From Candidatus Omnitrophota bacterium (GTDB taxonomy: Bacteria; Omnitrophota; Gorgyraeia; Zapsychrales; Zapsychraceae): a stretch of DNA of 64,000 bases. Below, piece by piece: positions 23,996-42,834 of this stretch. The translations under genes and the position numbers were made by a program. How positions within the stretch are numbered: position 1 is the stretch's first letter; the number at the start of each line of letters is the position of its first letter. The notes beneath the pieces were generated by a model that did not search any database, was not told the DNA's origin, and saw only the letters and a program-made list of their open reading frames with translations. The stretch lies in NCBI GenBank assembly GCA_028280285.1, contig JANQMA010000014.1:907-64906 (forward strand). The letters are read 5' to 3'.

Positions 23996-26900
23996 ATGCG
24001 TACCCACTGGACATATAGGTTCATTGCATTGGTTGTAAGCTGTTTATTTACAGTTACTTCGATCAATCCCGTCTATGCTCAAGTCCAGCCTGTTTCGGAT
24101 ATTGTTCCTAAACTACTTCCTATCAATGGTTTAAATCAGCCCTTTGAACCTATGCTTATCAAAGGCCTTAAAGTTAATCAAACCAACCCCTTCGAGATGG
24201 AATTTATTGTCAGTAATAAGAAGAGTGGTCAGTTTAAGAAGGAGTCTGCTCGGCTTATAAAATACTTCCTTGCGGCCTTAACCATTCCTGGAAAAGACAT
24301 GTGGGTGAATTTGTCCCCTTACGAAAAAAACCGGATTATTCCCGAATCCTTTGGTCAGACTGAGATGGGAAGGGAGCTGTTAGTTCAGGATTATCTCTTA
24401 AAACAGGTCACAGCATCATTATTGCATCCGGATGGTGAATATGGACAAAAATTTTGGGCCAAGATAGCGACCCAAGCATCCCAGGATATACCGTTAGAAT
24501 TATTCAGCAAAGTCTGGATCATACCGGATAAAGCAGTGGTGTATGAAAATGGAGGGACAGCCTATGTGGTGGAGGCGAGTTTAAAGGTGATGTTGGAGCG
24601 TGACTATTTAGCGGTTCAAACAGATGCTAGATCCTCGATGCTTGATGCTAGTCAACAAGAACTAGTATCTAGTATCCAGCATCCAGCATCTAATAACCTA
24701 ATCCGTGAAATTATAATCCCCGCCATCACCCAGGAGGTAAATGAATCCAAAAACTTCGCCAAACTCCGTCAAATCTATCACAGTCTCATCCTTGCGACCT
24801 GGTACAAAAAAAAGATGCAAAACGGGATTCTGAACCAAATCTATGTCGATCAAAACAAAACCGATGGGTTCATCCATAATGACCCTGAAGCAGCCAACAA
24901 AATTTGGCGAGAATATACCGAAACATTTAAAGAAGGAGCGTACAATTCCATCAAAGAAGAATACGATCCGCAGACCCAGCAAATCATCCCAAAGAAATAT
25001 TTTTCTGGCGGAGCTGATATGGCTAGCCTTGAAACAGAATCAATAGATAATTTTGTCTTAAAAGATGATGAAAGAGATATGGCTGTTCTTAAGATTAAAT
25101 TAAACTTAGAAAAATCTGACTTCGCGAGCTTAGCTAAAAGATTTTGGGAAAGACTAAGTATAGGTGGATTTGATATAGAAACTATCAAAAAATTATCGAC
25201 AGCTGTGCTAGACCAAAAAATTGAAAACCCAAAACAGTACGTTAATTCACTTATTGATTTTAAAAACTCTGTTAAACAAGCAACTTTATTAGAAAATCTT
25301 ATTAAAAGCATCATCAGTGCCAAAGATCCCAAAGGTCTCATTGATAACTATAAAATTATCATCGATAAAGTACACTATGGCTTGGGGCGTGATTCACAAG
25401 AGGACCTGGATAAACACCTAAAAAAGATTAGCGAGCAAGAGTCCCCTGAAACAGTGGCCCAAGAGGTAGTAGATATCCACTCAAAACTAAAGGAATTAGG
25501 CCGTAAAGACTACTACTACGTTGCTAATGATATATTTAAATATATTTTAGTTTCGGATGATTACGCCAGAAACACTGCTCTTCTTAATAAATCCACACTA
25601 CTCACTCAAATCTTTAAACTCATCAATGAACTCAATACCGAATCAAAAGATTACTATGACCTTGATTCTGATATCAAAGATAGAATTGTCTTAAAGATAC
25701 TTAGTGATACTGACATTGAAGCGATAGCTGATAGCTTTATTGAGTTTTATGTTAACTTAAAATACTTCGATTTACTGGGAAGCCAAAAAAGTAACCTTCT
25801 AACAACCATCATAGAACATACAAAATATAAGCAATTAGTGGTTTGGATGAACGCTAATTCGGATACTATTAAAAAGAATGCAAAAGCTATTCCTAAACAT
25901 GAAAAAAGAATGCAATATCTACAACAGGTTATTGAATCCTATGATGGCAGCAATACCGTCATTGATACAGGTGAGTACGGACAACTTAAAGCCCTACTCA
26001 ACAGTACATCTATAGAAAAAGAGGATATTGAAGAATTACTAGAGACAGCATCTAACACAGATACTATATCTCTACTGTTAAGTTTTACAAAATATCTGAT
26101 TGATAAAAGTAAGTTTGAAGATGCTTTAGATAAAGGATTTAAAGATGATTTATATAGAAAGTTACTGAAAAGCATCATCAACGCCAAAGATCCCAAAGGT
26201 CTCATTGATAACTATAAAATTATCATCGATGAAGTACACTATGACTTAAAGCGTAAATCACAAGAGGACCTGGATAAACACCTAAAAAAGATTAGCGAGC
26301 AAGAGTCCCCTGAAACAGTGGCCCAAGAGGTAGTGGATATCCACTCAAAACTGAAGGAATTAGGCAATAAAGACTACTACTACGTTGCTAATGATATATT
26401 TAAATATATTTTAGAATCTGATAATTATTCTAAATCTATTCACAGCTTAACCAACAAAATAATATTACAATCATTGTTTGATCTTATAACTAATCATCAT
26501 GATAAAAAAATTAGTAATTTAGTTAAACTTCATCTGCCCAATACTACCGAAAATCTAGATTACACAAAAATACTAGTTCTAGAGCACTTAAAATGGAATA
26601 TCATTCATAAAGAATTACTCGAAATTTTAAATAATAGTGAAATACTTTCAGTCTTTATAAAGACTACAAATGAAATTATCAAAACATCAAAAATCAATCC
26701 AAAAAAGGAGATCAATATATTCTTGTCTGGACTGGATGAGTACTTAAAAGTGCAAGATATTTATAAACCCCTTTTAGAGTGGAATGAAGAGGATTGGAAT
26801 TATTTAGTTAACCGTCAAGAACTAGAAAATACATTAAAAAGTAAAAATTCATCATTTGATGAAAAAATGGATTTATTAAATTTCTACCATAGATTTCGTC

Positions 26901-29900
26901 CGGTAACCTCATACAGTTTTAAAACCATACGGTCATTATTTGAACAAGAAGCTCAAACAGATGAGCAAAAAATCGAAGTTGTTGAGTATGTGGTTGATTT
27001 AATTAGAGACAAAAACGATATGGAAAATAGTTTCCCTTATTTAAGAGGGTTGGTCCAAAAAATAGCCCGCAAGCGTCCCAAACAAGGGGAATCGACTATT
27101 GAATTAACTCCTGTTGAACGGTCAATCTTAGAAGCTTTTGACACTATCGAACAGCGTGATCATTTGATTGACGTGATGCTTAATCCACACATGTCTTTGG
27201 ATACTAAAGAGTCGCTTTTGTCGATAACAGCCGGAACTGTTCTTGATCCAGGTTTAACGACAATTTATCAACAATTGAAAACTAAAAGAGAAAAAAAGAC
27301 ATTTTTTGAATTATTCTTGCGTATTAAAATAGAATTTAATATCAAACCACCGGCACTTATACTCCAATACCTTTTAAATGGTCAATTGACTTTTGAAAAT
27401 TTAAAACAAGCAGTACCAAAAGTTCAAGGAAAGTCTCTTAAAAATCTGATAGAAAGCCCAGAGTTTTTAGAAAAAGACAATAATTTTTTTCTGCTCAGTT
27501 ACTTTATATTTAATCCCTCAAAATGGGAATACGCACATCAACAACGGTTTGATCAATTTAAAAGTATTATGGATATTGTCAAATCGCATATTCAAAATTC
27601 AAACTTTACCAAAGCTGCAGAAAAAGAATTATATGCATCGATCAGAAAACATTCATCGGAGGCAGAGGAAATAATTGCTGCGCTCAAAACCGGTGAAAGT
27701 ATTATTCCCAAAATTTCCGGGATGAAAGATGCGGATGGTCAATTTATTCCCCAGCCGGTGAATATAAGCTATGCAGAATCCGAGGCTTTAAAACAGCAAA
27801 GAACGGATTTTATGATGGAGTTTAATCTCCGCTTAATGAATATCTTAAAGGCCATGCATTATATAAAAAACATAACAGCTATTACTAACAGATACCAGGA
27901 TGAGTCTGTTGAATTGCGGTCTCAATTTAATGACCTTATTAAGTCAATCCAAGGGTTAGGGGGTTTTGATAATCAGCTTTTAATACAACTGCATGACATG
28001 TATTTAAACGCCTTAAAAATCCTTCCCAAATTTAAATTTGCAAATGCAACCGACCTTGAGCAAGAAATACAAAATCAAACACAAAAATTTCTCTTAGCAT
28101 TTAAGAAAAAAGCTTTAATGCCAGTATACGGTTTTAGACCATTACTTGAGCAATATAAAATTAAAAATAATGATAAGCTCATCCATTCCTTAAGTGAATA
28201 TGATATTGATCTGTTTTATAGGGCCTTTCAGAATAAATCACGATGGGGCAAGGCATATCAGGAGACGGATCATTTTGAAGGATTCATTAAACAAACATTT
28301 TCGCTTATTCCCGAACTTTTTTCTAAGAAGCATTTTGGCGACCTTTACACGGAACCGTTTCAAAAAGCCTGGGGAGAGATGGTTGGACATTTTTCGACTA
28401 CTGCAAAACAATATGAAAAAATAATACAAGATCAAGATGATGTTAATGGAAAGTCAAAATTAGTTTATGCATCTTTGTTATCTAAAAGTGACATTCTTCC
28501 GTATATTAGGTTTGGTGATGCCCCAGAGTGTTGTTTGAGTTCACATAAGGAGAGTGATCAGTTATCACAAGGTTATATAGAATATATGGCATCAGCTCTA
28601 CTTGATCAGGGGACGCATGTTATTCTCTTTCATACAGAAAATAAACCGGTTGGCTTTATTTTATGGCACTTCGCTAAAGACAAAAAAGACAAACTTGTGG
28701 CCGCCAGTGCGCGACTTTATTTACAGACCCAATACCGTTCCACAATATCTACACAGAATATAATGAAAAAAGCTGAAGAGATTATGGCTCACCTGGGAAT
28801 ACAAGAAATTCATGTATCCGATACTTCCTATCCAGGGGCCCAAGGTATTCCTGAGGGATATGAAGGAGCCCATAGTATTGAACTCAAACGCATTCAAACA
28901 ACCACAAGTGTTGAGACAACCACAACGGATTTGGACCGTTATTTATCTAATCATTTTCGTTCAATGAGCATGCATAGCAAACGTTTAGATAATGTGCTGA
29001 TAAACAAGAACGATGCTCTCCTTGAAACAGCGCCAGAACCACACGAAGATCCTCTGGAGTTGGAACTGGTAGAAAATAATCCGCTTAATGTCCAGGAAAT
29101 AATCGCTCAAGGTGATATTATTGAATCGAAAAGCGCTCAAGAATACCAAAATACGTTAAATTTGAAATTTACACAATTAGGTATTATAGAAGCATCGAAA
29201 TTTCGTGTATTTATTAGAGACGCTGATATTCAATTACACGTGCTGAGACCAAGGAGTTTCGATAAACCAACCTTTGGATTAAATGTGCCATTTACCTCTA
29301 AGAACAAAGATCTTTATGCCATAAGCCAGGAGGAAGATGGCAAAATCAATATTTATATCAGCGAATTTGCTTACCTATATGGCAGTCAGGCTCTTACACA
29401 AGAACTAATTGCCCAAGAGTTGTATAAAATTTTTGCTAAAAGTCAGTCTCTGGAAGCAACAAATGACATTGACTTAGAAAGAATGATTAATGCCGAGTAT
29501 GAGAATTATTTTAAAAGTTGGTTAGAGTCTTTGAGCGCAGTAGAGCTCTCAGATTTAGGATTAAAGGGACAAATAAAGCGTATGACGATGCGTTCTTTTG
29601 TTTTCGGCCGTTTAATGGGAGAGTTACATGTAGATCAACAAAGCAAACTTACACATTTTATGCGAGAACGCAGGGAGGTTTCTATAAAACTTAATCAGAG
29701 AAATACAGAGTCACAGGAAATAACAATGCCTATCCCTGAAGATGCCTGGGAACTGATGGCCGATATTATGATCAATAAAAAAAATCCAGGAGAATTTATT
29801 AATACTAAAATGCAAAAGGACCATTTATTGTATTGGCTGTTCGCTTCTTATGCACCAGTTGTTTTTAATTCTATAGCCAAACAAATAAAAAATTTAATCG

Positions 29901-31006
29901 ACAACAATCATTTAAATATATTAATGGTCTCGATTGGGAGAGAGAATCAAAGCACCATTGATCAATATCTACAAACTGGAGACGAAGAGAGATTACGAGA
30001 AATAATAAATTCCCGTATTTTTTCAGCAGATTCCAATGATTCCATTAAGGCAACTGATGGATGGCTTAATATCTTTAAATGGGTATATGATTATAATTTG
30101 ATGACTCGTGTTCCTATAGAGATCAAAGCTATTGCCGATAGCTATGATGGGCCCGAAGCTATATCTGAAGATCTAAAGCTTTCATCCGCACTAGCGGATA
30201 GCGACACTAATGTTGTACTGTTAGGATATTATGGGCTTCGCGAGTACTTAAATGATGAACAACAAGAAAATATATTGATTCATATTGATCCGGTAACCGG
30301 TTTTTTTAACAATACCTCAAACTCTTTAAGTTATGCGTTTAATTTTTTGCTTGCAAGCAGAGAAGATCTTATCTTAGAGATTAAAGACAGTAACTTTGAG
30401 AATGAATCAATCGTATTTTTGGAGAATTCAGAATGGCAACAGTTGACGTTTAAAGCTGGTGAGATAGAAGGAATAGCATATTCTGACGAAGAAAAACAAA
30501 GTATCGTATCCTATTATCAACGCATTGCACCACTTATTGATAAATTTAATAAGTACCATTCTGTTTACGTAAGCATCCCTGGAGAAGATGGAGGGGATGA
30601 AGAACAATCACCAAAACTAACCCCGGAAACGCCCGAATATTCCCCTGTAGGTACTCCTACTGGTGCTGTTACCGATGCAGGGGTGCGTAAAGGAGGGATT
30701 GATTTTAATCCGGCAGGAATGGAGCTGGAAATCAAGACACAAGATACAGGGCACACGACACAGGTAAACTGTGTTGATGAGCCTGATCATGCTAACTGCA
30801 TTCAATTGCATTTTACTCCTGAACAAATCAAAGACATGCGTCAAAATATTACCGGCATTACTCCTGTCATCATCGATATCAGGCCGATGATTAATCTCCC
30901 TTTATTTCTAGGCTTTAATGATTCTGAAAGGCCTGCTGATGATACGGAAACGGTGGAGAAAGAAAACCGAGACTTGTTTGCAAGACTGGAAGAAATAGCT
31001 ATCTAA
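23996..31006 (+). CDS. Giant secreted protein (about 2336 aa): signal peptide, conserved N-terminal domain, variable repeat-containing middle, conserved C-terminal module
   Basis: Probable start is the ATG at 23996 (MRTHW...); the track's 23951 start is a TTG codon. Signal peptide ...SINPVYA|QV. The N-terminal domain is homologous to that of the 58012 ORF (WVNLSPYEKNRIIP...GQTEMGRELLVQDYLLKQ). The C-terminus carries GGIDFNP ... ITPVIIDIRPMINLPLFLGF plus an acidic tail. Confidence 0.7.
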   Translation: MRTHWTYRFIALVVSCLFTVTSINPVYAQVQPVSDIVPKLLPINGLNQPFEPMLIKGLKVNQTNPFEMEFIVSNKKSGQFKKESARLIKYFLAALTIPGKDMWVNLSPYEKNRIIPESFGQTEMGRELLVQDYLLKQVTASLLHPDGEYGQKFWAKIATQASQDIPLELFSKVWIIPDKAVVYENGGTAYVVEASLKVMLERDYLAVQTDARSSMLDASQQELVSSIQHPASNNLIREIIIPAITQEVNESKNFAKLRQIYHSLILATWYKKKMQNGILNQIYVDQNKTDGFIHNDPEAANKIWREYTETFKEGAYNSIKEEYDPQTQQIIPKKYFSGGADMASLETESIDNFVLKDDERDMAVLKIKLNLEKSDFASLAKRFWERLSIGGFDIETIKKLSTAVLDQKIENPKQYVNSLIDFKNSVKQATLLENLIKSIISAKDPKGLIDNYKIIIDKVHYGLGRDSQEDLDKHLKKISEQESPETVAQEVVDIHSKLKELGRKDYYYVANDIFKYILVSDDYARNTALLNKSTLLTQIFKLINELNTESKDYYDLDSDIKDRIVLKILSDTDIEAIADSFIEFYVNLKYFDLLGSQKSNLLTTIIEHTKYKQLVVWMNANSDTIKKNAKAIPKHEKRMQYLQQVIESYDGSNTVIDTGEYGQLKALLNSTSIEKEDIEELLETASNTDTISLLLSFTKYLIDKSKFEDALDKGFKDDLYRKLLKSIINAKDPKGLIDNYKIIIDEVHYDLKRKSQEDLDKHLKKISEQESPETVAQEVVDIHSKLKELGNKDYYYVANDIFKYILESDNYSKSIHSLTNKIILQSLFDLITNHHDKKISNLVKLHLPNTTENLDYTKILVLEHLKWNIIHKELLEILNNSEILSVFIKTTNEIIKTSKINPKKEINIFLSGLDEYLKVQDIYKPLLEWNEEDWNYLVNRQELENTLKSKNSSFDEKMDLLNFYHRFRPVTSYSFKTIRSLFEQEAQTDEQKIEVVEYVVDLIRDKNDMENSFPYLRGLVQKIARKRPKQGESTIELTPVERSILEAFDTIEQRDHLIDVMLNPHMSLDTKESLLSITAGTVLDPGLTTIYQQLKTKREKKTFFELFLRIKIEFNIKPPALILQYLLNGQLTFENLKQAVPKVQGKSLKNLIESPEFLEKDNNFFLLSYFIFNPSKWEYAHQQRFDQFKSIMDIVKSHIQNSNFTKAAEKELYASIRKHSSEAEEIIAALKTGESIIPKISGMKDADGQFIPQPVNISYAESEALKQQRTDFMMEFNLRLMNILKAMHYIKNITAITNRYQDESVELRSQFNDLIKSIQGLGGFDNQLLIQLHDMYLNALKILPKFKFANATDLEQEIQNQTQKFLLAFKKKALMPVYGFRPLLEQYKIKNNDKLIHSLSEYDIDLFYRAFQNKSRWGKAYQETDHFEGFIKQTFSLIPELFSKKHFGDLYTEPFQKAWGEMVGHFSTTAKQYEKIIQDQDDVNGKSKLVYASLLSKSDILPYIRFGDAPECCLSSHKESDQLSQGYIEYMASALLDQGTHVILFHTENKPVGFILWHFAKDKKDKLVAASARLYLQTQYRSTISTQNIMKKAEEIMAHLGIQEIHVSDTSYPGAQGIPEGYEGAHSIELKRIQTTTSVETTTTDLDRYLSNHFRSMSMHSKRLDNVLINKNDALLETAPEPHEDPLELELVENNPLNVQEIIAQGDIIESKSAQEYQNTLNLKFTQLGIIEASKFRVFIRDADIQLHVLRPRSFDKPTFGLNVPFTSKNKDLYAISQEEDGKINIYISEFAYLYGSQALTQELIAQELYKIFAKSQSLEATNDIDLERMINAEYENYFKSWLESLSAVELSDLGLKGQIKRMTMRSFVFGRLMGELHVDQQSKLTHFMRERREVSIKLNQRNTESQEITMPIPEDAWELMADIMINKKNPGEFINTKMQKDHLLYWLFASYAPVVFNSIAKQIKNLIDNNHLNILMVSIGRENQSTIDQYLQTGDEERLREIINSRIFSADSNDSIKATDGWLNIFKWVYDYNLMTRVPIEIKAIADSYDGPEAISEDLKLSSALADSDTNVVLLGYYGLREYLNDEQQENILIHIDPVTGFFNNTSNSLSYAFNFLLASREDLILEIKDSNFENESIVFLENSEWQQLTFKAGEIEGIAYSDEEKQSIVSYYQRIAPLIDKFNKYHSVYVSIPGEDGGDEEQSPKLTPETPEYSPVGTPTGAVTDAGVRKGGIDFNPAGMELEIKTQDTGHTTQVNCVDEPDHANCIQLHFTPEQIKDMRQNITGITPVIIDIRPMINLPLFLGFNDSERPADDTETVEKENRDLFARLEEIAI
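25301..25553 (+). repeat. Internal repeat copy 1 (about 250 bp) of the giant gene; about 95% identical to copy 2
   Basis: LIKSIISAKDPKGLIDNYKIIIDKVHYGLGRDSQEDLDKHLKKISEQESPETVAQEVVDIHSKLKELGRKDYYYVANDIFKYIL. Confidence 0.85.
26165..26411 (+). repeat. Internal repeat copy 2, about 860 bp downstream of copy 1
   Basis: LLKSIINAKDPKGLIDNYKIIIDEVHYDLKRKSQEDLDKHLKKISEQESPETVAQEVVDIHSKLKELGNKDYYYVANDIFKYIL. The identical antisense pseudo-ORFs (MRPLGSLALMM) in the ORF track reflect the same duplication. Confidence 0.85.
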
Positions 31007-31018
31007 ATAAAAGGATAG

Positions 31019-31072
31019 TTGACGTCCATACACCCCTTCTATATAATAACCCCACCATTCAAGAAGAGGAGG
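31019..31072 (+). promoter_or_regulatory. Near-consensus sigma70 promoter (TTGACG-17-TATAAT) plus AGGAGG ribosome-binding site for acnA
   Basis: TTGACG at 31019-31024, 17-nt spacer, TATAAT at 31042-31047, AGGAGG at 31067-31072, ATG at 31079. Confidence 0.6.
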
Positions 31073-31078
31073 AATTTA

Positions 31079-33772
31079 ATGGCAAGCAACTTTTCCAAAG
31101 ATCAAGTCCAGGAAGCACTTAAAGCTGGTTCCAAAGAATACACCATATACAGCATACCCAAATTTGCCAATCTCAATATCGGAAAGCCACAACAACTGCC
31201 ATTTTCCATCAAAGTTCTCCTTGAAAGCGCACTGCGTAATTATGATGATTATCAAGTCACCCTCGATGATATCACAAAATTAGCCAACTGGTCACCCGCT
31301 CAGACTGAACCGCAAGAAATTGCCTTTAAGCCGGGGCGTGTTGTCCTTCAAGATTTTACCGGTGTGCCCTGTGTGGTTGATTTGGCGGCCATGCGCAACG
31401 GTCTTAAAAATTTAGGTGGCGATTATAAAAAGATTAATCCGCAAGTACAATGTGATCTTGTCATTGACCATTCTGTTCAAGTTGATGCTTTTGGTTCTAG
31501 AGAAGCCTTTGCCAAAAATGTTGAGCTGGAATTTTCACGCAATAAAGAACGTTATGAATTTCTTAAATGGGGACAAAACGCGTTTGAAAATTTCCGTGTT
31601 GTGCCGCCGGCCACAGGAATTGTCCATCAAGTTAATTTAGAATACTTAGCCAAAGGTGTTTTACAAAAAGACGGTGCCGCTTATCCGGACAGTTTAGTTG
31701 GAACAGATTCGCATACAACTATGATTAATGGTCTTGGTGTTGTCGGTTGGGGCGTCGGTGGTATTGAAGCAGAGGCTGTTATGCTCGGCGAGCCGATTAA
31801 TATGCTTATGCCTCAGGTTATTGGGTTTAAACTTAAAGGACAATTAAGCGAAGGCGTTACGGCAACCGATTTGGTGTTGGTCGTAACACAGATGCTGCGT
31901 CAAAAGGGTGTCGTCGGTAAATTTGTTGAATTTTTTGGTGATGGGTTGGCCCATCTGAGTTTACCTGATCGGGCAACGATTTCGAATATGGCACCGGAAT
32001 ATGGTGCGACGATCGGCATTTTCCCGATCGATGAACAGACCTTAAGTTATTTGAAATTATCCGGACGTACGGATGAAGAGATTGACCTTGTTGAACAATA
32101 TTATAAAGCACAAGGCATGTTTTATACAGCGGATAGCATTGACCCCGAGTATACAGATACACTGGAACTTGATTTATCTACGGTACAGCCTTGTCTCGCC
32201 GGACCGAAACGACCGCAAGATAAAATCAATCTAACAGATATGAAAGACGAATTTCATGCAGATTTAATAAAACCTGTAAAGGATAGAGGGTTTGGTCTTG
32301 AAAATGGTCATTTGGATAAATCCATTAATATGGTTGATGGCGATGTAACAGAGGAAATGTATCATGGTTCGGTCGTTATTGCGGCGATTACTAGTTGTAC
32401 TAACACATCTAATCCATCGGTATTACTTGCCGCCGGGTTAGTCGCTAAAAAAGCAAGCGAGCTTGGTCTTAAAGTTAAAAAGTATGTTAAGACCAGTTTT
32501 GCACCGGGTTCCCAGGTTGTTGACGAGTATATTAATAAAGCAGGGCTTATGCCTTACCTTGAAGACCTTGGTTTTCACATTGTCGGTTATGGATGCACAA
32601 CATGTATCGGTAACAGCGGGCCTTTACCTGAGCCTGTCGCCAAGGCCATCGTTGATGGGGACCTTGTGGCTACATCTGTTTTAAGCGGTAACCGCAACTT
32701 CGAAGGACGTGTTAGTCCTTTAACCAAAGGAAATTATTTGGCTTCGCCGCCATTGGTTGTAGCGTACGCACTTGCCGGGACAGTTGATATTAATTTAGAC
32801 AAAGATCCTGTCGGACAAGATAAAGACGGCAATGATGTTTATTTAAAAGATATTTGGCCGACAACACAAGAGGTCAATGATCTTGCCGCCCAGGCCGTCA
32901 GTGCCGATGATTTTCGCAAACGGTACGGCAATGTGAGTGACGGTAATGCCGACTGGAATGAGATTGCATCGACCGCATCTGATCTTTACGCATGGAAAGA
33001 AGACAGCACGTATGTCCAGGAGCCACCGTTTTTTATTGGTATGACAGGTGACGTTGCGCCTATTGAAGAACTGAAAGGAGCGCAATGTTTAGTTAAGGTG
33101 GGGGATTCCATTACAACCGATCACATATCCCCAGCCGGTGTCATTGCCGAAGATTCTCCGGCAGGAAAGTATTTAAAAAGTCTTGGGGTAGAGAAAAAAG
33201 ATTTTAATAGTTACGGTTCCCGTCGGGGTAATGATCGTGTTATGACACGGGGCACATTCGCCAACGTTAAACTGCGTAATCAACTCGCGCCAGGTACAGA
33301 AGGCTCATGGACAACCCATTTCCCGTCAGGAGAAAAAACAAGCATCTATGATGCATCTCTTAAATATAAAGAATCTAACACACCTCTTATTGTTCTAGCC
33401 GGCAAAGACTATGGTATGGGTTCATCACGCGACTGGGCGGCCAAGGGAACAGCCCTCTTAGGAGTTAAAGCGGTTATTGCCGAGAGTTATGAGCGTATTC
33501 ACCGCAGTAACCTGGCCGGTATGGGTGTTTTGCCTCTGCAGTTTAAAGAAGGCGAGAGCCACGAAACATTAGGCCTTAAGGGGGATGAAGTGTTTGATTT
33601 TGAAGGCATCAATGATGATTTAAAACCGCGCCAAACAATCACCGTCACGGCAAAGTCTCCTGGAGGAGACGAAAAAACATTTGATGTTATTTGTCGTCTC
33701 GATACACCTGTTGAAATTGACTATGTTAAAAATGGGGGGATTCTTCAAACCGTCTTGCGCAAACTTGCTTAA
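31079..33772 (+). CDS. acnA: Aconitate hydratase A
   Basis: About 897 aa; aconitase family with Fe-S ligand cysteines ([22 protein letters not shown]) and the characteristic swivel-domain C-terminus. The start is placed at the ATG after the RBS rather than the track's 31019. Confidence 0.9.
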
Positions 33773-33773
33773 C

Positions 33774-33857
33774 CAGCGTTTAGCGAATAGCGGATAGCGA
33801 ATAGTAGTAAACAGAAAATAGATGATAGTAACCTAAACGCTATACGCTTTACGCTAA
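33774..33857. repeat. Heptamer-built inverted repeat ((TAGCGRA)n / (TWWACGC)n) after acnA
   Basis: cagcgtt tagcgaa tagcgga tagcgaa tag ... ctaaacg ctatacg ctttacg ctaat. Confidence 0.6.
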
Positions 33858-33880
33858 TAACTAGGATTATTGATTATCCA

Positions 33881-35860
33881 ATGAAAAATCTCTACACCCA
33901 ATCCGATGCTGATAAATGCAATAATGATCCTCTGCGCTTACGTGTCTACACATCCAGACTACTCGGTCAAGACTCTTCACTCGTCTTACATGGAGGAGGT
34001 AACACATCGGTTAAGACTGAAGTCGCTAATCTCTTTGGAGAAAAAGAAAAAGTTCTTTATGTGAAGGGAAGCGGTTGGGATTTGGCAACAATTGAAGCGG
34101 AGGGTTTTGCTCCTGTCAAAATGGACACGCTGCTTAAAATGGCCGAGTTAGACACACTTGACGATATGACTATGGTCAAAAATCAACGCGCTGCCATGCT
34201 CGATCCATCAGCGCCTAATCCGTCGGTGGAAGCGATCCTTCATGCGGTTATTCCCTTTAATTTTGTCGATCATACCCATGCCGATGCCGTTGTGACAGTC
34301 ACCAATACACCGAAAGGCAAAGAGCATGTCGATGCCATTTATGGTGATCGCGTTCTTGTTATTCCGTATGTGATGCCGGGTTTTATTTTGGCGAGAGAGA
34401 TTTACAAAATCACAAAAGAAATCAATTGGTCCGACTATGAAGGAATGGTTCTTCTTAATCATGGCATCTTTACCTGGGGAGATACCGCCCGTGAGAGTTA
34501 TGACCGTATGATTAAACTCGTTGATGAAGCAGAACAATATATCAATAAGCAAAATGCCGCTATTGATTTCGTTGAGACAACAAAGGTTTTTCCGAGTATC
34601 AACTTATTTGAATTTGCCAAACTGCGGCGCGAAGTATCGAAGGAGCGCGGTGGCGCTGTTGTCGCTCGTCTTGAAACCGACTCCTATCGCACGCATTTTG
34701 CAAATCTTAGCAATGTCAAAAAAATCGCTACGCGTGGATTATTGACGCCTGATCATGTCATAAGAAATAAACGCATTCCGATGATTATTGAAAGTGATGT
34801 CAAAAAATCTGTTGCCAATTTTGTCCGCGATTATGAAAAGTATTTCAAACACAATACCGACGGTACGTTAACCTGCCTTGATCCGGCACCGCGTTGGGGT
34901 ATTTGGCCAAACATCGGAACAGTCACATTTGGACGAACAGTCAAAGAATGCATTATTATTTCTGATATTACGCATCACACCATGAAGGCGATTGAAACGG
35001 CCGAGAAGCTCGGCGGATGGAAAACACTAGGAGAAAAAGATATTTTTGAAATGGAGTATTGGGTTTTAGAACAAGCCAAGTTGAAAAAGTCCGGTTCGGC
35101 TTCTATTTTTCAAGGGAAGGTGGCCGTTGTCACAGGTGCCGCGAGCGGCATTGGACGGGCCTGTGTTGAAAAGTTACACCAGTTCGGCGCTGTAGTCGTA
35201 GCTTTAGATATCAATCCAGACATTCGGACAATGTTTAATAAATCTGATATCATTGGTCTTGTCTGTGACTTAACCGATGAGGTTGCGATCCATGAGGCCA
35301 TTACAACAACTGTGCGTAACTTCGGCGGACTCGATATTATTGTCAGTAATGCCGGTACTTTTCCGGCCAGTGAACTGCTTGATGAGATGAAACGCTCGAC
35401 ATGGGATAAAAGTATTAATACGAACCTTTCCAGCCATCAAATTTTGATGCAGCATGCCTTGCCATTCTTAAAAGAAGGGATTGATCCGGCGATTGTCATT
35501 GTCGGATCAAAGAATGTCGCCGCACCGGGACCGGGCATATCGGCCTATTCTGTCGCTAAAGCAGGGCTTACACAACTAGCGCGTGTGGCTGCCCTGGAAT
35601 GTGCCGCAGCAGGCATTCGGGTCAATGTCGTTCATCCCAACGCCGTCTTCGATACAGCCATCTGGACAGACGATGTGCTGACCAAGCGGGCTAAAAACTA
35701 CAATATGTCCGTTGATGAGTACAAAACAAACAATCTGCTTAAAACTGCAATCACATCCGCCGATGTGGCCGAACTGGTTGCCACCATGGCCGGTCCTGTC
35801 TTTAGCAAAACCACCGGCGCCCAAGTTTCTATTGATGGCGGCAATGATCGGACGATTTGA
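33881..35860 (+). CDS. Bifunctional class II aldolase / short-chain dehydrogenase (rhamnulose-1-phosphate aldolase/alcohol dehydrogenase-like)
   Basis: N-terminal aldolase/adducin-like domain (HGGGNTSVK) fused to a C-terminal SDR domain (TGAASGIGRA ... YSVAKAG). Confidence 0.7.
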   Translation: MKNLYTQSDADKCNNDPLRLRVYTSRLLGQDSSLVLHGGGNTSVKTEVANLFGEKEKVLYVKGSGWDLATIEAEGFAPVKMDTLLKMAELDTLDDMTMVKNQRAAMLDPSAPNPSVEAILHAVIPFNFVDHTHADAVVTVTNTPKGKEHVDAIYGDRVLVIPYVMPGFILAREIYKITKEINWSDYEGMVLLNHGIFTWGDTARESYDRMIKLVDEAEQYINKQNAAIDFVETTKVFPSINLFEFAKLRREVSKERGGAVVARLETDSYRTHFANLSNVKKIATRGLLTPDHVIRNKRIPMIIESDVKKSVANFVRDYEKYFKHNTDGTLTCLDPAPRWGIWPNIGTVTFGRTVKECIIISDITHHTMKAIETAEKLGGWKTLGEKDIFEMEYWVLEQAKLKKSGSASIFQGKVAVVTGAASGIGRACVEKLHQFGAVVVALDINPDIRTMFNKSDIIGLVCDLTDEVAIHEAITTTVRNFGGLDIIVSNAGTFPASELLDEMKRSTWDKSINTNLSSHQILMQHALPFLKEGIDPAIVIVGSKNVAAPGPGISAYSVAKAGLTQLARVAALECAAAGIRVNVVHPNAVFDTAIWTDDVLTKRAKNYNMSVDEYKTNNLLKTAITSADVAELVATMAGPVFSKTTGAQVSIDGGNDRTI

Positions 35861-36089
35861 CAAATCCAGTCTGATCACGTAGAATCATTCCTCACATATA
35901 ATAATAATATTTAAGTAATATATTATATATCCGATAATCCGGTTAAGTTATTTGGTGTTCGGTGGCGATGCCCGTATCGGTTTTTGGTCATGTTAAACGT
36001 ATTTTGTAACGACAAACGCTAACCGATATACGAAACGGGTTTCGAAACCGAAAAACGTTAACAAATGAATTCAGTATTAGGAGTATTTA
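35861..36089 (+). promoter_or_regulatory. Long (about 230 nt) structured 5' leader upstream of leuC; candidate attenuator
   Basis: Mutually exclusive hairpins (cgtatcggtt / aaccgatatacg; gaaacgggtttc / gtttcgaaac) and a 10-codon mini-ORF (atgttaaacgtattttgtaacgacaaacgctaa). No T-box consensus found. Confidence 0.25.
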
Positions 36090-37496
36090 ATGGGTAAGAC
36101 ATTATATGAAAAAATCTGGGATACCCACATGGTGCGTGAAAGCCAAGGGGATACGTCCATTATTTATATAGACCGTCATTTGGTCCACGAAGTCACCAGT
36201 CCGCAGGCCTTTGAAGGGCTTAGACTTACAGGCCGTAAGGTGCGTTGTCCACAAAAGACCATTGCCACCATGGATCACAACGTTTCGACCAGGACAAAAG
36301 TTTTTTCTGAAATGGAAAAGACATCGCAGATCCAAATGGAGGCGCTCATCAAAAACTGTGAAGAGTTTGGCATTACTTGCTACGACCATCAGCACCCTGA
36401 CCAAGGTGTTGTGCACATCATCGGCCCTGAGCAAGGCCTAACACAACCCGGGATGACCATTGTCTGCGGCGATTCGCATACAGCGACTCATGGCGCTTTT
36501 GGGGCATTGGCCTTTGGTATCGGAACTTCTGAAGTCGAACATGTGCTTGCAACACAAACCTTACAGCAAAATAAATCCAAAACAATGCTCATTAATGTCG
36601 AAGGCGAGTTAGGATTTGGTGTAACGGCCAAAGACATTATTTTATATATCATCGGTCAAATCGGAACGGCCGGAGCAACCGGTTATGTAATTGAATACGC
36701 CGGAAGCGCGATCCGTAATCTTTCGATGGAAGGACGTATGACTATTTGTAATATGAGCATCGAAGCCGGTGCGCGCGCCGGGATGATTGCGCCTGATCAA
36801 ACGACTTTTGATTATATCCAAGGACGCGACTTTGCCCCGAAAGGTGAACAGTGGGAACAGGCTGTCAACTATTGGAAATCCCTGACGTCAGATCCCGATG
36901 CCAAATTCGATACTGTTTTAGATTTAAAAGCAGAAGATATCGCCCCACAGGTTACATGGGGCACATCACCTGGGCAGGTAACATCGGTCACAGCAACTGT
37001 CCCTGATCCGGAAAGTTTTACCGATGCGGTTGAACGCACATCAGCCCGTCAGGCGCTTGATTATATTAAACTTGAGGCTAACACACCGATTGAAGGTATT
37101 GCGATCGATAAAGTATTCATCGGTTCGTGTACAAATGGACGTATCGAAGATTTGCGGGTTGCCGCCAAAATTGTGGAAGGCAAAAAAGTCGCCGACAATG
37201 TGCAGGCGATTGTTGTGCCTGGTTCAGGCCGTGTTTTACGTCAAGCTGAAGAAGAAGGGTTGGCCCAAATCTTTCGCGATGCCGGTTTTGAATGGCGTTT
37301 TGCCGGATGCTCGATGTGTTTAGGCATGAACGATGATCAATTAACGGCCGGTGAGCGTTGCGCCTCAACGTCCAACCGTAACTTTGAAGGCCGTCAAGGC
37401 CCCGGCGGATTAACCCATTTGATGAGTCCGGAAATGGCCGCTATCGCCGCCCTTGAGGGAAAGATAGTTGATATAAGAAAATATAAAAAATCTTAA
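36090..37496 (+). CDS. leuC: 3-isopropylmalate dehydratase large subunit
   Basis: Aconitase-family catalytic domain; Fe-S cysteines ([15 protein letters not shown]). Confidence 0.95.
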
Positions 37497-37501
37497 CCAT
37501 G

Positions 37502-37571
37502 AGGTTTTAGGGATTAGGTTTTGGGTTTTAGTAAAATAATATCTAACCCCCAACACCTTAAACCTAAAACC
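37502..37571. repeat. Heptamer-built inverted repeat ((GGTTTTA)n / (CTAAAAC)n) between leuC and leuD
   Basis: aggtttta gggatta ggttttg ggtttta g ... ctaaccc ccaacac cttaaac ctaaaac c, followed by gctttttt. Confidence 0.6.
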
Positions 37572-37598
37572 ATTTAGTGCTTTTTTAAGGATCAAAAT

Positions 37599-38210
37599 AT
37601 GGAACCATTTACAACACACACCGGTATTGCCGCACCGCTTGACCGTGCCAATGTCGATACCGATGCGATTATACCCAAACAATTTTTACGCAAAATTGAC
37701 CGTACGGGATTTGGCGTGCATTTATTTCATGAGCTACGTTACACTGATTATGAGGGCACGCAGGAAAATTCGGACTTTATTTTAAATCAGGAGCCTTATC
37801 GTAGTGCAACGGTTTTACTTGCGCGGGATAATTTTGGCTGCGGCTCATCCCGTGAGCATGCGCCGTGGGCGATTGCTGATTTTGGTTTTAAGGTAATCAT
37901 CGCACCGAGCTTTGCCGATATTTTTAAAAACAATTGCGTTAAAAACGGTATTTTAACCATTGTTTTATCACAAGAAGAGGTTGAAGAATTGTTTCAATTA
38001 ACAGCAAGTGATAAGGGTGTCGAATTTACAGCTGATCTTGAAGAACAAAAACTAACCGCCGGTGGCAAAGAATATACTTTTGATCTTCATCCGTTTTCTA
38101 AAGAATGTTTGCTTAAAGGCTTAGATCATATTGGATGGACATCTCAATTTGAAAATCAAATCAGAACCTATGAGCAGAAATTGAAAACTACAACGCCATG
38201 GCTTACGTAA
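37599..38210 (+). CDS. leuD: 3-isopropylmalate dehydratase small subunit
   Basis: Aconitase swivel domain ([12 protein letters not shown]). Confidence 0.95.
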
Positions 38211-38211
38211 A

Positions 38212-38283
38212 CAGCGGATAGCGGTTAGCGTAAAGCGAATAGATTAATTTCTAAACGCTATACGCCATACGCTAAACGCTAAG
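38212..38283. repeat. Heptamer-built inverted repeat (CGGATAG / CTAAACG units) after leuD; same family as 33774-33857
   Basis: cagcggatag cggttag cgtaaag cgaatag ... ctaaacg ctatacg ccatacg ctaaacg ctaag. Confidence 0.6.
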
Positions 38284-38310
38284 ATTATCAGCAGAAGATA
38301 AGAGTTAATT

Positions 38311-40011
38311 ATGACTAAACAAAAAAGAAAATATTCCTCCAAAGTTGTTGACGGTTATGATCGCGCACCGAGCCGTTCGATGCTGCGTGCAGTCGGATTT
38401 AAAGACGCGGATTTCAAAAAACCGCAAATCGGTATTGCCTCAACATGGAGCATGGTAACACCCTGTAACATGCACATCGATGGCCTGGCTAAAAAATCAT
38501 GTAAGGGTGTTGATGCGGCTGGCGGTAAAGGTGTTATCTTTAATACCATCACAATCTCCGATGGTATTTCCATGGGTAGTGAAGGGATGAAGTATTCGCT
38601 TGTTTCACGCGAGGTCATCGCTGATTCTTTAGAAACAGTTGTTGGTTGTCAGGGATTTGACGGTGTTGTGGCGATCGGCGGCTGTGATAAAAATATGCCT
38701 GGGTGTCTCATTGGCATGGCGCGCTTAAACCGTCCGTCTGTTTTTGTTTATGGTGGGACAATTTTACCGGGGTGTATGACAGGTAAGGAAGTCGGTAAAA
38801 AACTGGACATTGTCTCTGTCTTTGAAGCTGTCGGAGCCTACTCAAATAAAAAGATCTCAAATAAAGAATTAAAAAAAGTTGAAACACTTTCTATTCCCGG
38901 TCCTGGTTCATGTGGTGGGATGTATACGGCTAACACCATGGCATCAGCCATTGAAGCGTTAGGTATGAGTTTGCCGGGATCATCCGCCCAAAATGCGATT
39001 TCGAAAGAAAAATCAAAAGACTGTGTTGAGGCTGGTAAGGCCGTTCTTAATTTACTTCAAAAAAATATTCGTCCGCGCGATATTATGACACGTAAGGCCT
39101 TTGAAAATGCGATTACAGTTGTCACAGCGCTTGCCGGTTCAACCAACGCGGTTTTGCATTTGCTTGCCATGGCGAACGCTTGCGGCGTTAATCTTTCGAT
39201 TGATGATTTTACGCGTATCGGTAAAAAGGTTCCTGTTTTAGGCGATTTGAAACCAAGCGGTAAGTATTTAATGTCGGAATTAATTGCCATCGGCGGTATT
39301 CAACCGCTTATGAAGATGCTTCTTAAAAAAGGATTACTTCATGGCGATTGCATGACGGTCACCGGCAAAACAATGGCCCAAAATCTAAAGAACGTTAAGC
39401 CGTATCCGGTTAAACAGGATATTATCCGCCCATTCGATGATCCGATCAAAAAGACCGGACACTTGGTTATTCTCTACGGTAACTTAGCTAAGACCGGGGC
39501 GGTGGCCAAAATCAGTGGCAAGGAAGGGTTGTTTTTTTCTGGCAAGGCGATCGTTTTTGAATCGGAGGAAACAGCACTTCAGGCGATCCTTTCCGGCAAA
39601 GTTAAGAAGGGGCATGTTGTTGTTGTGCGCTACGAAGGGCCGAAGGGCGGACCTGGTATGCGTGAGATGTTATCTCCCACATCAGCCATTATGCGTAAAG
39701 GTTTGGGTAAAGATGTTGCGCTTATTACTGACGGACGTTTTTCCGGTGGAAGCCACGGTTTTGTTGTCGGGCATGTGTCTCCTGAAGCTTATGATGGCGG
39801 AACGATCGCCATTATCAAAAATGGGGACCCGATTACCATTGATGCCAAGAAACAAAAAATCAATTTAGATATTCCGGCAACGGAAATTAAAAAACGCTTA
39901 AAAGCTTGGAAACGACCGAAATCAAAATATACTAAAGGAGTCCTTGCGAAATATCGTCATACAGTATCGTCTGCTCATCTTGGAGCAGTAACAGATTTGG
40001 ATTTAACATAA
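38311..40011 (+). CDS. ilvD: Dihydroxy-acid dehydratase
   Basis: IlvD/EDD family; CDKNMPG and GGSCGGMYTANTM motifs. Confidence 0.95.
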   Translation: MTKQKRKYSSKVVDGYDRAPSRSMLRAVGFKDADFKKPQIGIASTWSMVTPCNMHIDGLAKKSCKGVDAAGGKGVIFNTITISDGISMGSEGMKYSLVSREVIADSLETVVGCQGFDGVVAIGGCDKNMPGCLIGMARLNRPSVFVYGGTILPGCMTGKEVGKKLDIVSVFEAVGAYSNKKISNKELKKVETLSIPGPGSCGGMYTANTMASAIEALGMSLPGSSAQNAISKEKSKDCVEAGKAVLNLLQKNIRPRDIMTRKAFENAITVVTALAGSTNAVLHLLAMANACGVNLSIDDFTRIGKKVPVLGDLKPSGKYLMSELIAIGGIQPLMKMLLKKGLLHGDCMTVTGKTMAQNLKNVKPYPVKQDIIRPFDDPIKKTGHLVILYGNLAKTGAVAKISGKEGLFFSGKAIVFESEETALQAILSGKVKKGHVVVVRYEGPKGGPGMREMLSPTSAIMRKGLGKDVALITDGRFSGGSHGFVVGHVSPEAYDGGTIAIIKNGDPITIDAKKQKINLDIPATEIKKRLKAWKRPKSKYTKGVLAKYRHTVSSAHLGAVTDLDLT

Positions 40012-41093
40012 TGGCTGGAAATATTTACGGCGACATCTTTAAAGTCACAACCTTCGGTGAATCCCATGGACCGGCGATCGGATGCATTGTCGATGGTGTT
40101 CCACCGGGACTTGAACTATCTGAAAGCGATATTCAATATGATTTAGACCGCCGCAAGCCGGGCCAAAGTAAAATTACAACGCAAAGACAAGAGGCCGATG
40201 CCGTTGAAATCCTCTCAGGTGTGTTTGAGGGCAAAACAACAGGATGTTCGCTTGCGCTTCTGATTCGCAATAAAGACCACCGTTCCAAAGACTATTCCAA
40301 TATCAAAGACATTTTCCGTCCCGGGCATGCGGACTACACCTTTTTAAAGAAATACGGTCTGCGTGATTACCGTGGGGGTGGACGTTCTTCAGGACGCGAG
40401 ACCGCCGCTCGTGTTGCTGCCGGAGCGGTTGCCAAAAAAATTCTTCAAGTACACGGAATCAATATTATTGCTTATACAAAATCCGTCGGTGATGTTGAGG
40501 CCAAAAAGATTGATTATTCCGTCATCGAGCAAAATATTGTGCGTGCCCCTGATTTAAAGGCAGCCGATAAAATGATTGAAGTTATTGAAGCGGCCCGTAA
40601 GAATACCGATTCCATCGGTGGTGTTGTCGAAGCTGTGATCCATAAATGCCCACCGGGACTGGGCGATCCTGTCTTTGGTAAGCTCAATGCCAAACTATCG
40701 TACGGCCTGATGTCGATCGGTACTATCCGTGGCATAGAATTCGGCCTGGGTTTTGACGCCACCAAAATGCATGGCAGTGAGCACAATGATAAATTTTATA
40801 TGGATGGTGACCGTGTGCGCACAATGTCCAATAATGCCTCCGGCATGCTCGGTGGTATTTCTAACGGCGAGGATATTATCCTGCGTGTTGCCGTTAAGCC
40901 GCCTTCATCGATTGCTCAGACACAGCAAACAGTCAGCATTGATGGGAAAGATACAACGTGCGAGGTAAAGGGAAGGCACGATCCTTGTATTTGCCCACGG
41001 GTGGTTCCTGTGGTTGAATCGATGATTGCACTTACGGTCGTTGATTGTTTGATGCTTCATAAAGCCATTCAATTACCCGACACTGATGACTAA
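40011..41093 (+). CDS. aroC: Chorismate synthase
   Basis: GESHG, RSSGRETA and GG(I/S)SNG motifs. Confidence 0.95.
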   Translation: MAGNIYGDIFKVTTFGESHGPAIGCIVDGVPPGLELSESDIQYDLDRRKPGQSKITTQRQEADAVEILSGVFEGKTTGCSLALLIRNKDHRSKDYSNIKDIFRPGHADYTFLKKYGLRDYRGGGRSSGRETAARVAAGAVAKKILQVHGINIIAYTKSVGDVEAKKIDYSVIEQNIVRAPDLKAADKMIEVIEAARKNTDSIGGVVEAVIHKCPPGLGDPVFGKLNAKLSYGLMSIGTIRGIEFGLGFDATKMHGSEHNDKFYMDGDRVRTMSNNASGMLGGISNGEDIILRVAVKPPSSIAQTQQTVSIDGKDTTCEVKGRHDPCICPRVVPVVESMIALTVVDCLMLHKAIQLPDTDD

Positions 41094-41952: not shown

Positions 41953-42015
41953 GGTTTTAGGTGTTGGGTGTTAGTCGACTAAAAACCCAAAACCTTACAC
42001 CTTAAGCCTTTTTTT
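41951..42015. terminator. Bidirectional terminator-like heptamer palindrome between convergent SDR (+) and MBL hydrolase (-) genes
   Basis: aaggtttta ggtgttg ggtgtta gtcgac taaaaac ccaaaac cttacac cttaagcc followed by ttttttt at 42009-42015; T-rich on the opposite side as well. Confidence 0.55.
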
Positions 42016-42715: not shown

Positions 42716-42740
42716 TCTCTATAATAGGAAAAGACATAGC

Positions 42741-42796
42741 GTAGGGGACGCTCGCGAGCGTCCCTCAAATTAGGGCCGTTCACGAACGGCCCCTAC
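42741..42796. promoter_or_regulatory. Nested GC-rich palindromes in an AT-rich divergent promoter region
   Basis: gtagggg [acgctcgcgagcgt] ccctcaaattaggg [ccgttcacgaacgg] cccctac. Contains a perfect 20-bp palindrome gggacgctcgcgagcgtccc (42744-42763) and the near-palindrome gggccgttcacgaacggccc, enclosed by a gtagggg / cccctac outer stem. Confidence 0.4.
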
Positions 42797-42834
42797 TATT
42801 ATCCATGCTATTTAATATTTAACAAAGGACTCCC

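Follow-up and report, generated by a model that had tools for sequence, protein, structure and literature searches.

Tandem repeats of heptamers have been known in cyanobacteria since 1990. In Anabaena, Nostoc and Lyngbya, hairpins built of 7-base units of the short tandemly repeated repetitive (STRR) type occur upstream of hoxW and in the gap from hupS to hupL; it has been suggested that they stabilise transcripts or couple translation, their true function being unknown (PMC2670836). Heptamer families reach tens of occurrences per Nostoc genome (PMC2408588), and heptamer repeats, some of them inverted, are over-represented in the intergenic DNA of both Nostoc and Xanthomonas (PMC4692102). Repeats of the TAACTGA type, found in Beggiatoaceae, cyanobacteria and Bacteroidetes, adjoin start or stop codons and place a stop codon in each of the three frames (PMC4679880). 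To account for the 7-nt unit, slippage tied to the footprint of the polymerase has been put forward (PMC4692102 and PMC4679880, citing Mrazek 2007), and a regulatory role has been suggested for heptamer repeats in Nostoc (bioRxiv 10.1101/2022.06.06.494920). Among long simple repeats, heptamers are the over-represented kind in many bacteria. Here we describe eleven palindromes with heptamer-repeat arms in a 64,000-nt stretch of contig JANQMA010000014.1 (hereafter, the window) from Candidatus Omnitrophota, a phylum for which a literature search found no publications on such repeats.

A sequence-only reading of the window had pointed to intergenic sites at which about four tandem heptamers are followed by a short spacer and about four mirrored heptamers. 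Tandem Repeats Finder (TRF) and a scan for inverted pairs bore out this architecture, which at the primary site, 33774-33857, reads CAGCGTT TAGCGAA TAGCGGA TAGCGAA TAG ... CTAAACG CTATACG CTTTACG CTAA. The accompanying claim that no such element had been described did not hold, since STRR hairpins of heptamers are known from between operon genes (PMC2670836) and intergenic heptamers, some inverted, from other genomes (PMC4692102). The elements are not a new kind of repeat; they extend STRR-like systems to a new phylum, and their palindromic form is unusually pure. The present analysis adds their family structure, a set of filled and empty junctions that records recent gain beside stop codons, concerted change of the two arms, and a copy that is translated in frame.

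The likeness to STRRs lies in tandem heptamers of several unit families that are dispersed and intergenic and form hairpins between genes of one operon. In the window, tandem heptanucleotide units are detected by TRF, and period 7 alone among periods 5-12 gives inverted pairs; there are about five families, four of them with two copies each within these 64 kb; and 10 of the 11 elements are intergenic, eight of these in co-directional junctions, between genes that would be co-transcribed. The host is Candidatus Omnitrophota and not a heterocyst-forming or filamentous cyanobacterium. Judged by these comparisons, the elements would work like STRRs without being members in the taxonomic sense. They also differ in form: 21 of 23 arrays in the window stand in tight hairpins with loops of at most 20 nt, whereas many arrays in our Nostoc sample are purely direct. 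That sample, 100 kb scanned of the Nostoc punctiforme plasmid pNPUN01, holds 13 period-7 arrays (0.13/kb, vs 0.36/kb in the window), eight of them in inverted pairs whose partners are mostly 50-450 nt apart, with one tight hairpin at 44799-44889. Unlike in the cyanobacterial case, filled and empty junctions can be compared directly here. The unit TTGGTCA/TTAGTCA of the element at 55441 is one that we take to be STRR2 of Mazel et al. 1990. It equals the GAC(C/T)AAT repeat of Nostoc 7120 (bioRxiv 10.1101/2022.06.06.494920), a match that may be coincidental given the many known units.

The Xanthomonas GGGAATC, Nostoc GGGGAYT and Beggiatoaceae TAACTGA repeats resemble the window elements in being heptamers over-represented in intergenic DNA and in part inverted (PMC4692102). 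The studies of these simple sequence repeats each concern one unit, found mostly as direct repeats (PMC4692102, PMC4679880; for TAACTGA, 169 direct sets and one inverted set, PMC4679880), whereas the window has many units and the palindrome is the rule. The same studies emphasise G-quadruplexes or regulation in 5' untranslated regions, while only one family in the window, family B below, is G-rich. Its arms (GGTTTTAGGGATTAGGTTTTGGGTTTTAG) at 37503-37531 and 41953-41973 resemble telomere-type repeats and could form two-tetrad G-quadruplexes on the sense strand.

Period-7 palindromes at gene ends

At nine of the ten sites listed by the sequence-only reading, TRF detected arrays with a period of 7 and 3.3-4.6 copies, mostly in both arms (6900, 18867/18915, 33781/33833, 38213/38251, 54574/54616 and 55444/55484), together with a period-14 array at 23794, and a lag-7 scan contributed further arrays at 37500, 41944 and 56659. 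When runs with at least 17 of 21 matches at lag p were called across the window, period 7 yielded nine segments, as compared with 0.05 in dinucleotide shuffles; the other periods from 4 to 13 yielded none or one, and period 14 yielded three. A laxer scan (at least 15 of 21 matches) found 23 period-7 arrays in the window, 21 of which make up 10 inverted pairs that are at most 20 nt apart and have mutually reverse-complementary consensus units. Both of the remaining arrays lie in coding DNA and look like chance occurrences. Periods 5, 6 and 8-12 gave no inverted pairs in the laxer scan and only 0-7 arrays.

On curated gene coordinates, non-coding DNA holds 19 arrays in 4,066 bases (4.67/kb) and coding DNA four in 59,934 bases (0.067/kb), while 200 dinucleotide shuffles of the spacers gave means of 0.08 arrays and 0.005 pairs. 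Relative to coding DNA the enrichment is about 70-fold, relative to shuffles it exceeds 200-fold, and the equal frequency in coding or shuffled DNA that would have undone the original observation is absent. Some 1.95 Mb of other bacterial loci contained 49 arrays and eight pairs, three of the pairs coming from another assembly of the same genome. All eleven sites fold as long imperfect hairpins (z-scores of -2.6 to -7.7 vs shuffles). Rfam at gathering thresholds had no match anywhere in the window, and ARAGORN found no tRNA or tmRNA in it. The observation of period-7 palindromes is confirmed as real and far above chance.

These numbers leave practically no room for chance low-complexity sequence or an assembly artefact. 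Such an origin would be suggested by the source, which is a metagenome assembly, and by a Logan contig of the same sample that breaks off inside the element at 38212 (at window position 38278). It is already refuted by the enrichment, by seven elements that are identical in independent Logan contigs, by intact reading frames on either side of the elements, and by the occurrence of a like architecture in Nostoc and many other contigs. The right arm of element 38212 has CTAAACGCTATACGC in common with element 33774, and heptamer palindromes probably do break short-read assemblies. They also escape repeat finders based on sequence homology and can sit in frame inside genes, which together make a practical warning.

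The eleven elements are as follows (no strand is assigned to any of them; families A to F are defined in the next section):

6858-6933: heptamer palindrome, unit NGTGNTC, family E, between the Rieske gene (6315-6863) and the cytochrome b gene (6963-7763); stem starting 0 nt past the stop codon; fold -25.8 kcal/mol, z -3.25
18863-18949: heptamer palindrome, unit TRGTAAT, family C (A-type), between ctaA (17880-18866) and ctaB (18964-19824); stem starting 0 nt past the stop codon; TRF periods 7 and 14; z -5.71
23773-23836: weaker member, with a period-14 right arm (TAGCAAC GAGCGAC TAGCATC GAGCAAC; TRF) and a short left partner, in a divergent spacer 10 nt upstream of the start of a minus-strand radical-SAM gene; weakest site (z -2.64), under the pair-scan threshold
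24620-24698: heptamer palindrome, unit GATGCTN, family D (TRF), in frame within a giant open reading frame (ORF; 23996-31006); z -7.67, the most stable of all eleven
33772-33857: heptamer palindrome and primary site, unit TAGCGRA, family A, between acnA (31079-33772) and an aldolase/SDR fusion gene (33881-35860); stem starting 2 nt past the stop codon; z -3.48
37500-37572: heptamer palindrome, unit GGTTTTA, family B, between leuC (36090-37496) and leuD (37599-38210); z -4.29
38210-38285: heptamer palindrome, unit TAGCGNN, family A (TRF), between leuD and ilvD (38311-40011); z -6.64
41944-42015: heptamer palindrome, unit GGTKTTR, family B, between an SDR gene (41086-41952) and a convergent metallo-beta-lactamase-fold gene (42014-42715, minus strand), occupying the entire 61-nt gap; z -3.74
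54574-54648: heptamer palindrome, unit GGTRAAA, family F (loosely B-like; TRF), between znuA2 (53670-54575) and znuC2 (54667-55428); z -2.67
55439-55516: heptamer palindrome, unit TRGTCAT, family C (C-type; TRF), between znuC2 and znuB2 (55515-56654); z -4.82
56659-56730: heptamer palindrome, unit GATNCTN, family D, between znuB2 and a second permease gene (56733-57845); z -3.75

Of the ten originally listed sites, the one given as 23773-23831 turned out to be weaker, with a 14-nt periodic right arm and a short left partner, and an eleventh, 24620-24698, had been missed. The latter is translated within a hypervariable linker (...TDARSSMLDASQQELVSSIQHPAS...) while the ORF remains continuous; by alignment, it lies in the variable linker that separates two conserved blocks of an Omnitrophota-specific N-terminal domain.

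The intergenic elements divide into eight in co-directional junctions (Rieske|cytb, ctaA|ctaB, acnA|aldolase-SDR, leuC|leuD, leuD|ilvD, znuA|znuC, znuC|znuB and znuB|permease), which sit inside apparent operons, one in a convergent and one in a divergent spacer. In seven of the eight co-directional junctions the base of the stem is 0-6 nt from the upstream stop codon, and the stem ends 11-36 nt ahead of the next start codon. Junction geometry and folding thus agree with the earlier statement that the sites lie at gene 3' ends or between operon genes and form long imperfect hairpins. Near-consensus sigma-70-type matches, at 31019, 35857, 42698 and 44363, all fall in element-free spacers, and of the 17 array-free spacers that measure 60 nt or more, 16 are without an element and one holds the weak member at 23773. 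As the larger, promoter-type spacers are nearly element-free, random insertion filtered only by gene disruption cannot account for where the elements stand; insertion must be directed to the ends of genes, or else selection determines at which sites they persist. The two Fur-ZnuABC operons of the window show the pattern side by side: in the operon at 53172-57845, which is syntenic with the relative L172, each of the three transporter-gene junctions has a palindrome and the Fur|znuA junction has none, and in the paralogous operon at 44380-47234 the genes overlap and are hairpin-free.

A stem-loop at the 3' end of a gene recalls a Rho-independent terminator, above all at 41951, where TTTTTTT directly follows the stem between convergent genes. 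This is the only clear T-run among the eleven elements; at 18869 and 37502 marginal T-runs are displaced by 4-9 nt, and the other eight elements have 1-4 T in the 12-nt tail, in keeping with the original remark that some sites carry T-runs and others do not. The stems are moreover long, AT-rich and mismatched, and they stand mostly between subunit genes of a single enzyme or transporter. A consensus terminator scan of 30000-49999 called no element. Most elements are not classical terminators.

Unit families and filled and empty junctions

The comparison with related genomes is the central result. Three closer relatives, L171, L172 and L173 (LeuD 81, 79 and 77% identical by protein search), are syntenic with the window and similar in GC, and about 30 kb of their sequence contains no period-7 arrays. 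Six junctions that are filled in the window are empty (0-12 nt) in these relatives:

leuC|leuD: spacer of 1-12 nt in L171/L172/L173, 102 nt here
leuD|ilvD: spacer of 0-12 nt in the relatives, 100 nt here
SDR gene and convergent lactamase-fold gene: 0 nt in L172, where the stop codons abut, 61 nt here
znuA|znuC: spacer of 11 nt in L172, 91 nt here
znuC|znuB: genes overlapping in L172, 86 nt here
znuB|permease: spacer of 3 nt in L172, 78 nt here, with the ACT before the ATG conserved

The excess length is largely the palindrome plus a short tail before the next start codon, and the palindromes now make up most of the spacers that they occupy. More distant relatives are likewise tight at these junctions. 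The elements are therefore shown to be lineage-specific gains, of 60-85 nt each, at formerly very short stop-codon junctions. With junctions of 0-12 nt in same-order relatives against a palindrome of 60-100 nt here, this is an unusually clean case outside the cyanobacteria, and the contrast makes the gain of elements, their boundaries, their preference for stop-codon junctions and the concerted evolution of their arms directly readable. At the orthologous acnA spacer, the relative L001 has an ordinary terminator-like hairpin with a T-run where element 33774 stands in the window.

Several elements have TAA or TAG at both ends, and in four junctions a TAR triplet lies at the ancestral distance from the ATG. 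The TAA is suggestive of a target-site duplication, but as the units themselves contain TAA/TAG, these terminal triplets are not independent evidence of one. A look for strain-level variation in unit number led to a single sample with the exact proteins, SRR20820735, whose contigs equal the window bar one coding single-nucleotide polymorphism.

Four other Omnitrophota genomes (about 85 kb) lack heptamer palindromes, which are therefore not a phylum-wide trait. Elsewhere, L094 has heptamer palindromes of about 150 nt at both leuD junctions, L090 and L152 each have one, close to or directly past a stop codon, and the leuC|leuD spacer of L088 (3134-3210) contains a palindrome in which the period of the arms is 8 nt (AAGTCACA ... 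TGTGACNT). The post-stop position is common to the palindromes of all four. In two other relatives, leuD junctions carry a sequence-conserved REP-like hairpin (GGGGACATGGCTTTAGCCGTGTCCCC, with flanks in common), on both sides of leuD in L087 (about 5880-6000 and 6610-6700) and after leuD in L082 (about 2140-2200), so that the same junctions have been colonised by different palindromic repeats in different lineages.

Within the window, the sequence-only reading had held that the core sequence differs from site to site. Local alignment of all elements against each other showed instead that the sites group: 33770/38208 score 29, 37498/41947 score 28, 24617/56656 score 28 and 18864/55437 score 20, while random or shuffled 80-mers reach 12 at most; the weak site at 23773 scores 16 with 24617. 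The units quoted earlier were correct, and the family alignments show that they are not independent of one another. Four family pairs (33774 and 38212, 37502 and 41951, 24622 and 56660, 18869 and 55441) have two copies each within 64 kb, and the sister elements are similar over both arms into the loop or tail, at 66-82% identity. The units are TAGCGNN for family A, GGTTTTA for B, TRGTNAT for C, GATNCTN for D, GTGNTC for E and GGTRAAA for the loosely B-like F. In each family some 5 nt of the unit form a conserved core and about two positions per heptamer are hypervariable, the latter being the regularly spaced mismatches of the stem, and the cores of the families (TAGCG, GGTTTT, TAGTNAT, GATNCT, GTGNTC) are unrelated. 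By these alignments, the window elements form about five dispersed repeat families and share more than a mere periodicity. Copies of a single known family, the outcome that had been thought fatal to the idea, they are not, even though their kind is known. The kinship of elements from separate loci extends across both arms and into the loop, so sequence has been copied between loci. Within families, the palindromes align about equally well in both orientations. The 8-mer CTAATAAC follows elements of two different families, A and D (33855-33864 and 24689-24698); like the TAA at both ends of several elements, it may be a motif of the termini or a duplicated target, a reading confounded by the TAA/TAG of the units.

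The unit families of the window were not found in other genomes (2.2 Mb of fetched loci). By our own rough estimates, matches to three tandem TAGCGNN units in IMG/VR are about as numerous as chance predicts for 15 specified bases, and arrays of the TAGTCNT type are roughly 10-fold enriched there.

The arrays themselves bear traces of how they change. Identity at period 14 exceeds that at period 7 at 18867 (94 vs 88%), 54577 (85 vs 69%) and 55484 (87 vs 81%), and in some arms neighbouring units are identical without being mirrored in the opposite arm, which is the pattern expected from slippage in steps of one or two units. Slippage, one of the origins proposed at the outset for the hairpins, is thereby supported. 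The two members of family C differ at unit position 5, which is A in four left-arm and 4-5 right-arm units at 18869 and C in three of four left-arm and all three right-arm units at 55441. The units of an element are closer to one another, and to its opposite arm, than to the units of the sister element, a likeness that is shown to reflect concerted evolution, so that the change of the unit on both arms that had been anticipated is seen in this family. Between sister copies, the share of differing positions is 17% where bases are paired and 42% where they are not (Fisher p = 1.5e-5), a sign of structural constraint.

Explanations for the heptamer palindromes

We consider it probable that the elements are copy-and-paste palindromic repeats, reshaped by slippage and template switching, that are tolerated or possibly used as intercistronic RNA structures. 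Non-coding palindromes of the STRR type would have proliferated in this one Candidatus Omnitrophota lineage; their heptamer arrays would grow and homogenise by replication slippage in 7- or 14-nt steps, and the complementarity of the arms would be kept by intrastrand template switching, that is, by the correction of quasipalindromes, an established mutational mechanism. Because they lie inside operons, the elements would be transcribed and would then form imperfect stems of 20-34 bp that loop out the added spacer, returning the upstream stop codon to within 11-36 nt of the next start, and for this reason they would be tolerated. As intercistronic structures they may in addition protect 3' ends, cause partial pausing or act as processing sites, an RNA function that we infer. 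Several observations weigh against this account. No candidate for a transposase, a RAYT or another mobilising gene was found among the ORFs of the window (Pfam, NCBIfam), and neither an unambiguous target-site duplication nor fixed termini can be defined from two copies per family. A hint of local seeding comes from znuA|znuC and leuC|leuD, where the first unit is similar to the sequence of the ancestral spacer. The in-ORF copy gives the linker no extra length compared with homologues, and in-situ conversion fits this better than simple insertion. On the side of function, the antisense strand of the eleven elements has a lower summed folding energy than the sense strand (-300 vs -275 kcal/mol) and G-U pairs number 23 in the antisense and 12 in the sense, the opposite of what selection on the sense transcript should produce; the G-U pair test is thus negative for selection on sense RNA.

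If the host had instead selected the elements for what they do in RNA, as partial terminators or attenuators, barriers to 3' exonucleases, RNase III-type sites or means of translational coupling, the periodicity would be a by-product. The elements do lie in junctions that would be transcribed and fold well, paired positions are better conserved than unpaired ones between sister copies, the convergent junction at 41951 has its T-run, and the terminator-like hairpin of L001 at the acnA site makes it plausible that a hairpin is useful there; the same roles have been proposed for cyanobacterial STRR hairpins (PMC2670836). Yet the three closer and several distant relatives run the same operons with hairpin-free junctions of 0-12 nt, as does the paralogous znu operon of the same genome, a clear U-tract is missing from 10 of the 11 elements, the sense strand has no G-U advantage, one copy sits inside a coding frame, and a need for RNA structure leaves the 7-nt period unexplained. 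We regard host selection as the primary cause as unlikely. Growth in situ from a short local seed, by slippage and fold-back synthesis and with no copying between loci, would account for the period-14 blocks and adjacent identical units in one arm, for concerted changes within an element, and for an in-ORF copy that adds no length; it would also fit the first post-stop unit at znuA|znuC, GTGAAAG, given its similarity to the ancestral spacer (GTGAGAT), and the unit of family B, TTAGGNN, which is like the relatives' stop-plus-Shine-Dalgarno spacer. It does not explain why four pairs of elements at unrelated loci are 66-82% identical over both arms, loop and tail, far above chance, nor how a family B element arose between convergent genes, where a Shine-Dalgarno seed is lacking and the spacer in L172 is zero, and we think it quite improbable as the whole explanation. 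Arrays of binding sites for a protein that reads a 7-nt phase, whether a nucleoid protein, a regulator or a cold-shock-type protein, were also among the original suggestions. A conserved core of about 5 nt with about two hypervariable positions in each heptamer is compatible with this, CspB binding to heptamer repeats is cited in PMC4679880, and a factor that binds heptamer repeats has been proposed for Nostoc (bioRxiv 10.1101/2022.06.06.494920). A single reader that is specific for sequence does not suit five families with unrelated cores; the sites moreover occupy intra-operon junctions and not promoter spacers, and they are entirely absent from relatives, which makes such a protein very improbable.

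Copy-and-paste palindromic repeats, the reading we prefer, might have a wider extension. Heptamer-array palindromes could be a class of mobile or self-renewing DNA that crosses phyla (Omnitrophota, Nostocales and the high-GC IMG/VR contigs), targeted 3' of stop codons by some specific activity. What they propagate would be an architecture rather than a fixed sequence, namely mirror symmetry and a 7-nt phase that slippage and template switching renew. We offer this as speculation and consider it unlikely; if true, such a class would explain why the elements are invisible to homology-based repeat finders and to Rfam.

Other repeat classes and further features of the window

Outside the heptamer repeats, there is a likeness to REP (repetitive extragenic palindromic), BIME and REPIN sequences, ERIC and Correia-type MITEs (miniature transposable elements with inverted repeats), which are also short imperfect palindromes in dispersed families that follow stop codons and stand between co-transcribed genes. 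As is characteristic of MITEs, the window elements show presence and absence at orthologous sites, here at six junctions. REP-type palindromes are thought to affect mRNA stability or termination (PMC3733652, PMC3116915) and carry a conserved GTAG or CGTC tag at one end (PMC3733652). In none of the eleven elements does either tag or its complement lie 8 nt or less from a stem base. The elements also differ in that their stems are tandem heptamers with about two mismatches per unit and that several unrelated families coexist within 64 kb. Strict identity with REP or REPIN was rejected, given the tag-less ends. A RAYT gene, coding for the IS200/IS605-like Y1 transposase that goes with REP sequences, was not found among the ORFs of the window.

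Rickettsia palindromic elements, as reported by Ogata et al. in 2000, are said to lie in frame inside protein genes and to be translated, to be 100-150 bp long and conserved in sequence, and to lack heptamer periodicity. The in-frame, translated copy at 24620-24698 resembles them, and the differences are that the window has one in-ORF copy and that its linker is not longer. The 'palindromic microsatellites' of Fusarium are not comparable, being of the type (A)n/(T)n.

From IMG/VR, 197 loci were fetched by two heptamer patterns; as each was selected for holding one such array, their density is biased. They contained 730 arrays and 126 inverted pairs. Some contigs are dense in arrays of many units, with palindromes at gene boundaries: L286, L248, L215 and L235 (62-67% GC), L225 (39%) and L325 (48%). 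In L286, 12 pairs fall within 13 kb, and their units include GCGAATA and one like the GGGAATC of Xanthomonas. A blast of L286 and L225 against plasmids identified no host.

The window has 41% GC, its aconitase locus is syntenic with metagenome-assembled genomes of Candidatus Omnitrophota (locus scan, blastn), and the named homologues of its LeuD are mostly from Omnitrophica or Omnitrophota. A Nostoc-like cyanobacterium, to which the STRR-type repeats and the GC content could have pointed, was rejected as the source on the grounds of this synteny and these homologues. Besides the two Fur-ZnuABC operons, it encodes a bc-type complex, an aa3 oxidase, ctaA/ctaB, a radical-SAM enzyme, acnA, leuC, leuD, ilvD, aroC and cysS. 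The giant ORF at 23996-31006 specifies 2,336 aa with a signal-peptide-like N-terminus; its first approximately 330 residues represent a family that numbers more than 1,200 proteins, has no consistent Pfam assignment and counts only Candidatus Omnitrophica among its named members. In L001 and L173 the radical-SAM gene and acnA are adjacent, which indicates that this ORF is an insertion or rearrangement in the present genome. A multi-haem c-type cytochrome of 992 aa at 8896-11874 combines SoxX-like with cbb3 subunit II/III-like modules and lies directly downstream of split cytochrome b6/subunit IV-like genes, in an unusual fused bc-complex operon. Two other spacers contain ordinary perfect hairpins that lack heptamer periodicity, at 51777-51812 (AAAGGGGTCAGAGCAAA aa TTTGCTCTGACCCTTTT, which looks like a terminator) and at 53055-53085 (AGCCTATTCAACTG cgt CAGTTGAATAGGCT), showing that this genome uses conventional stem-loops as well.

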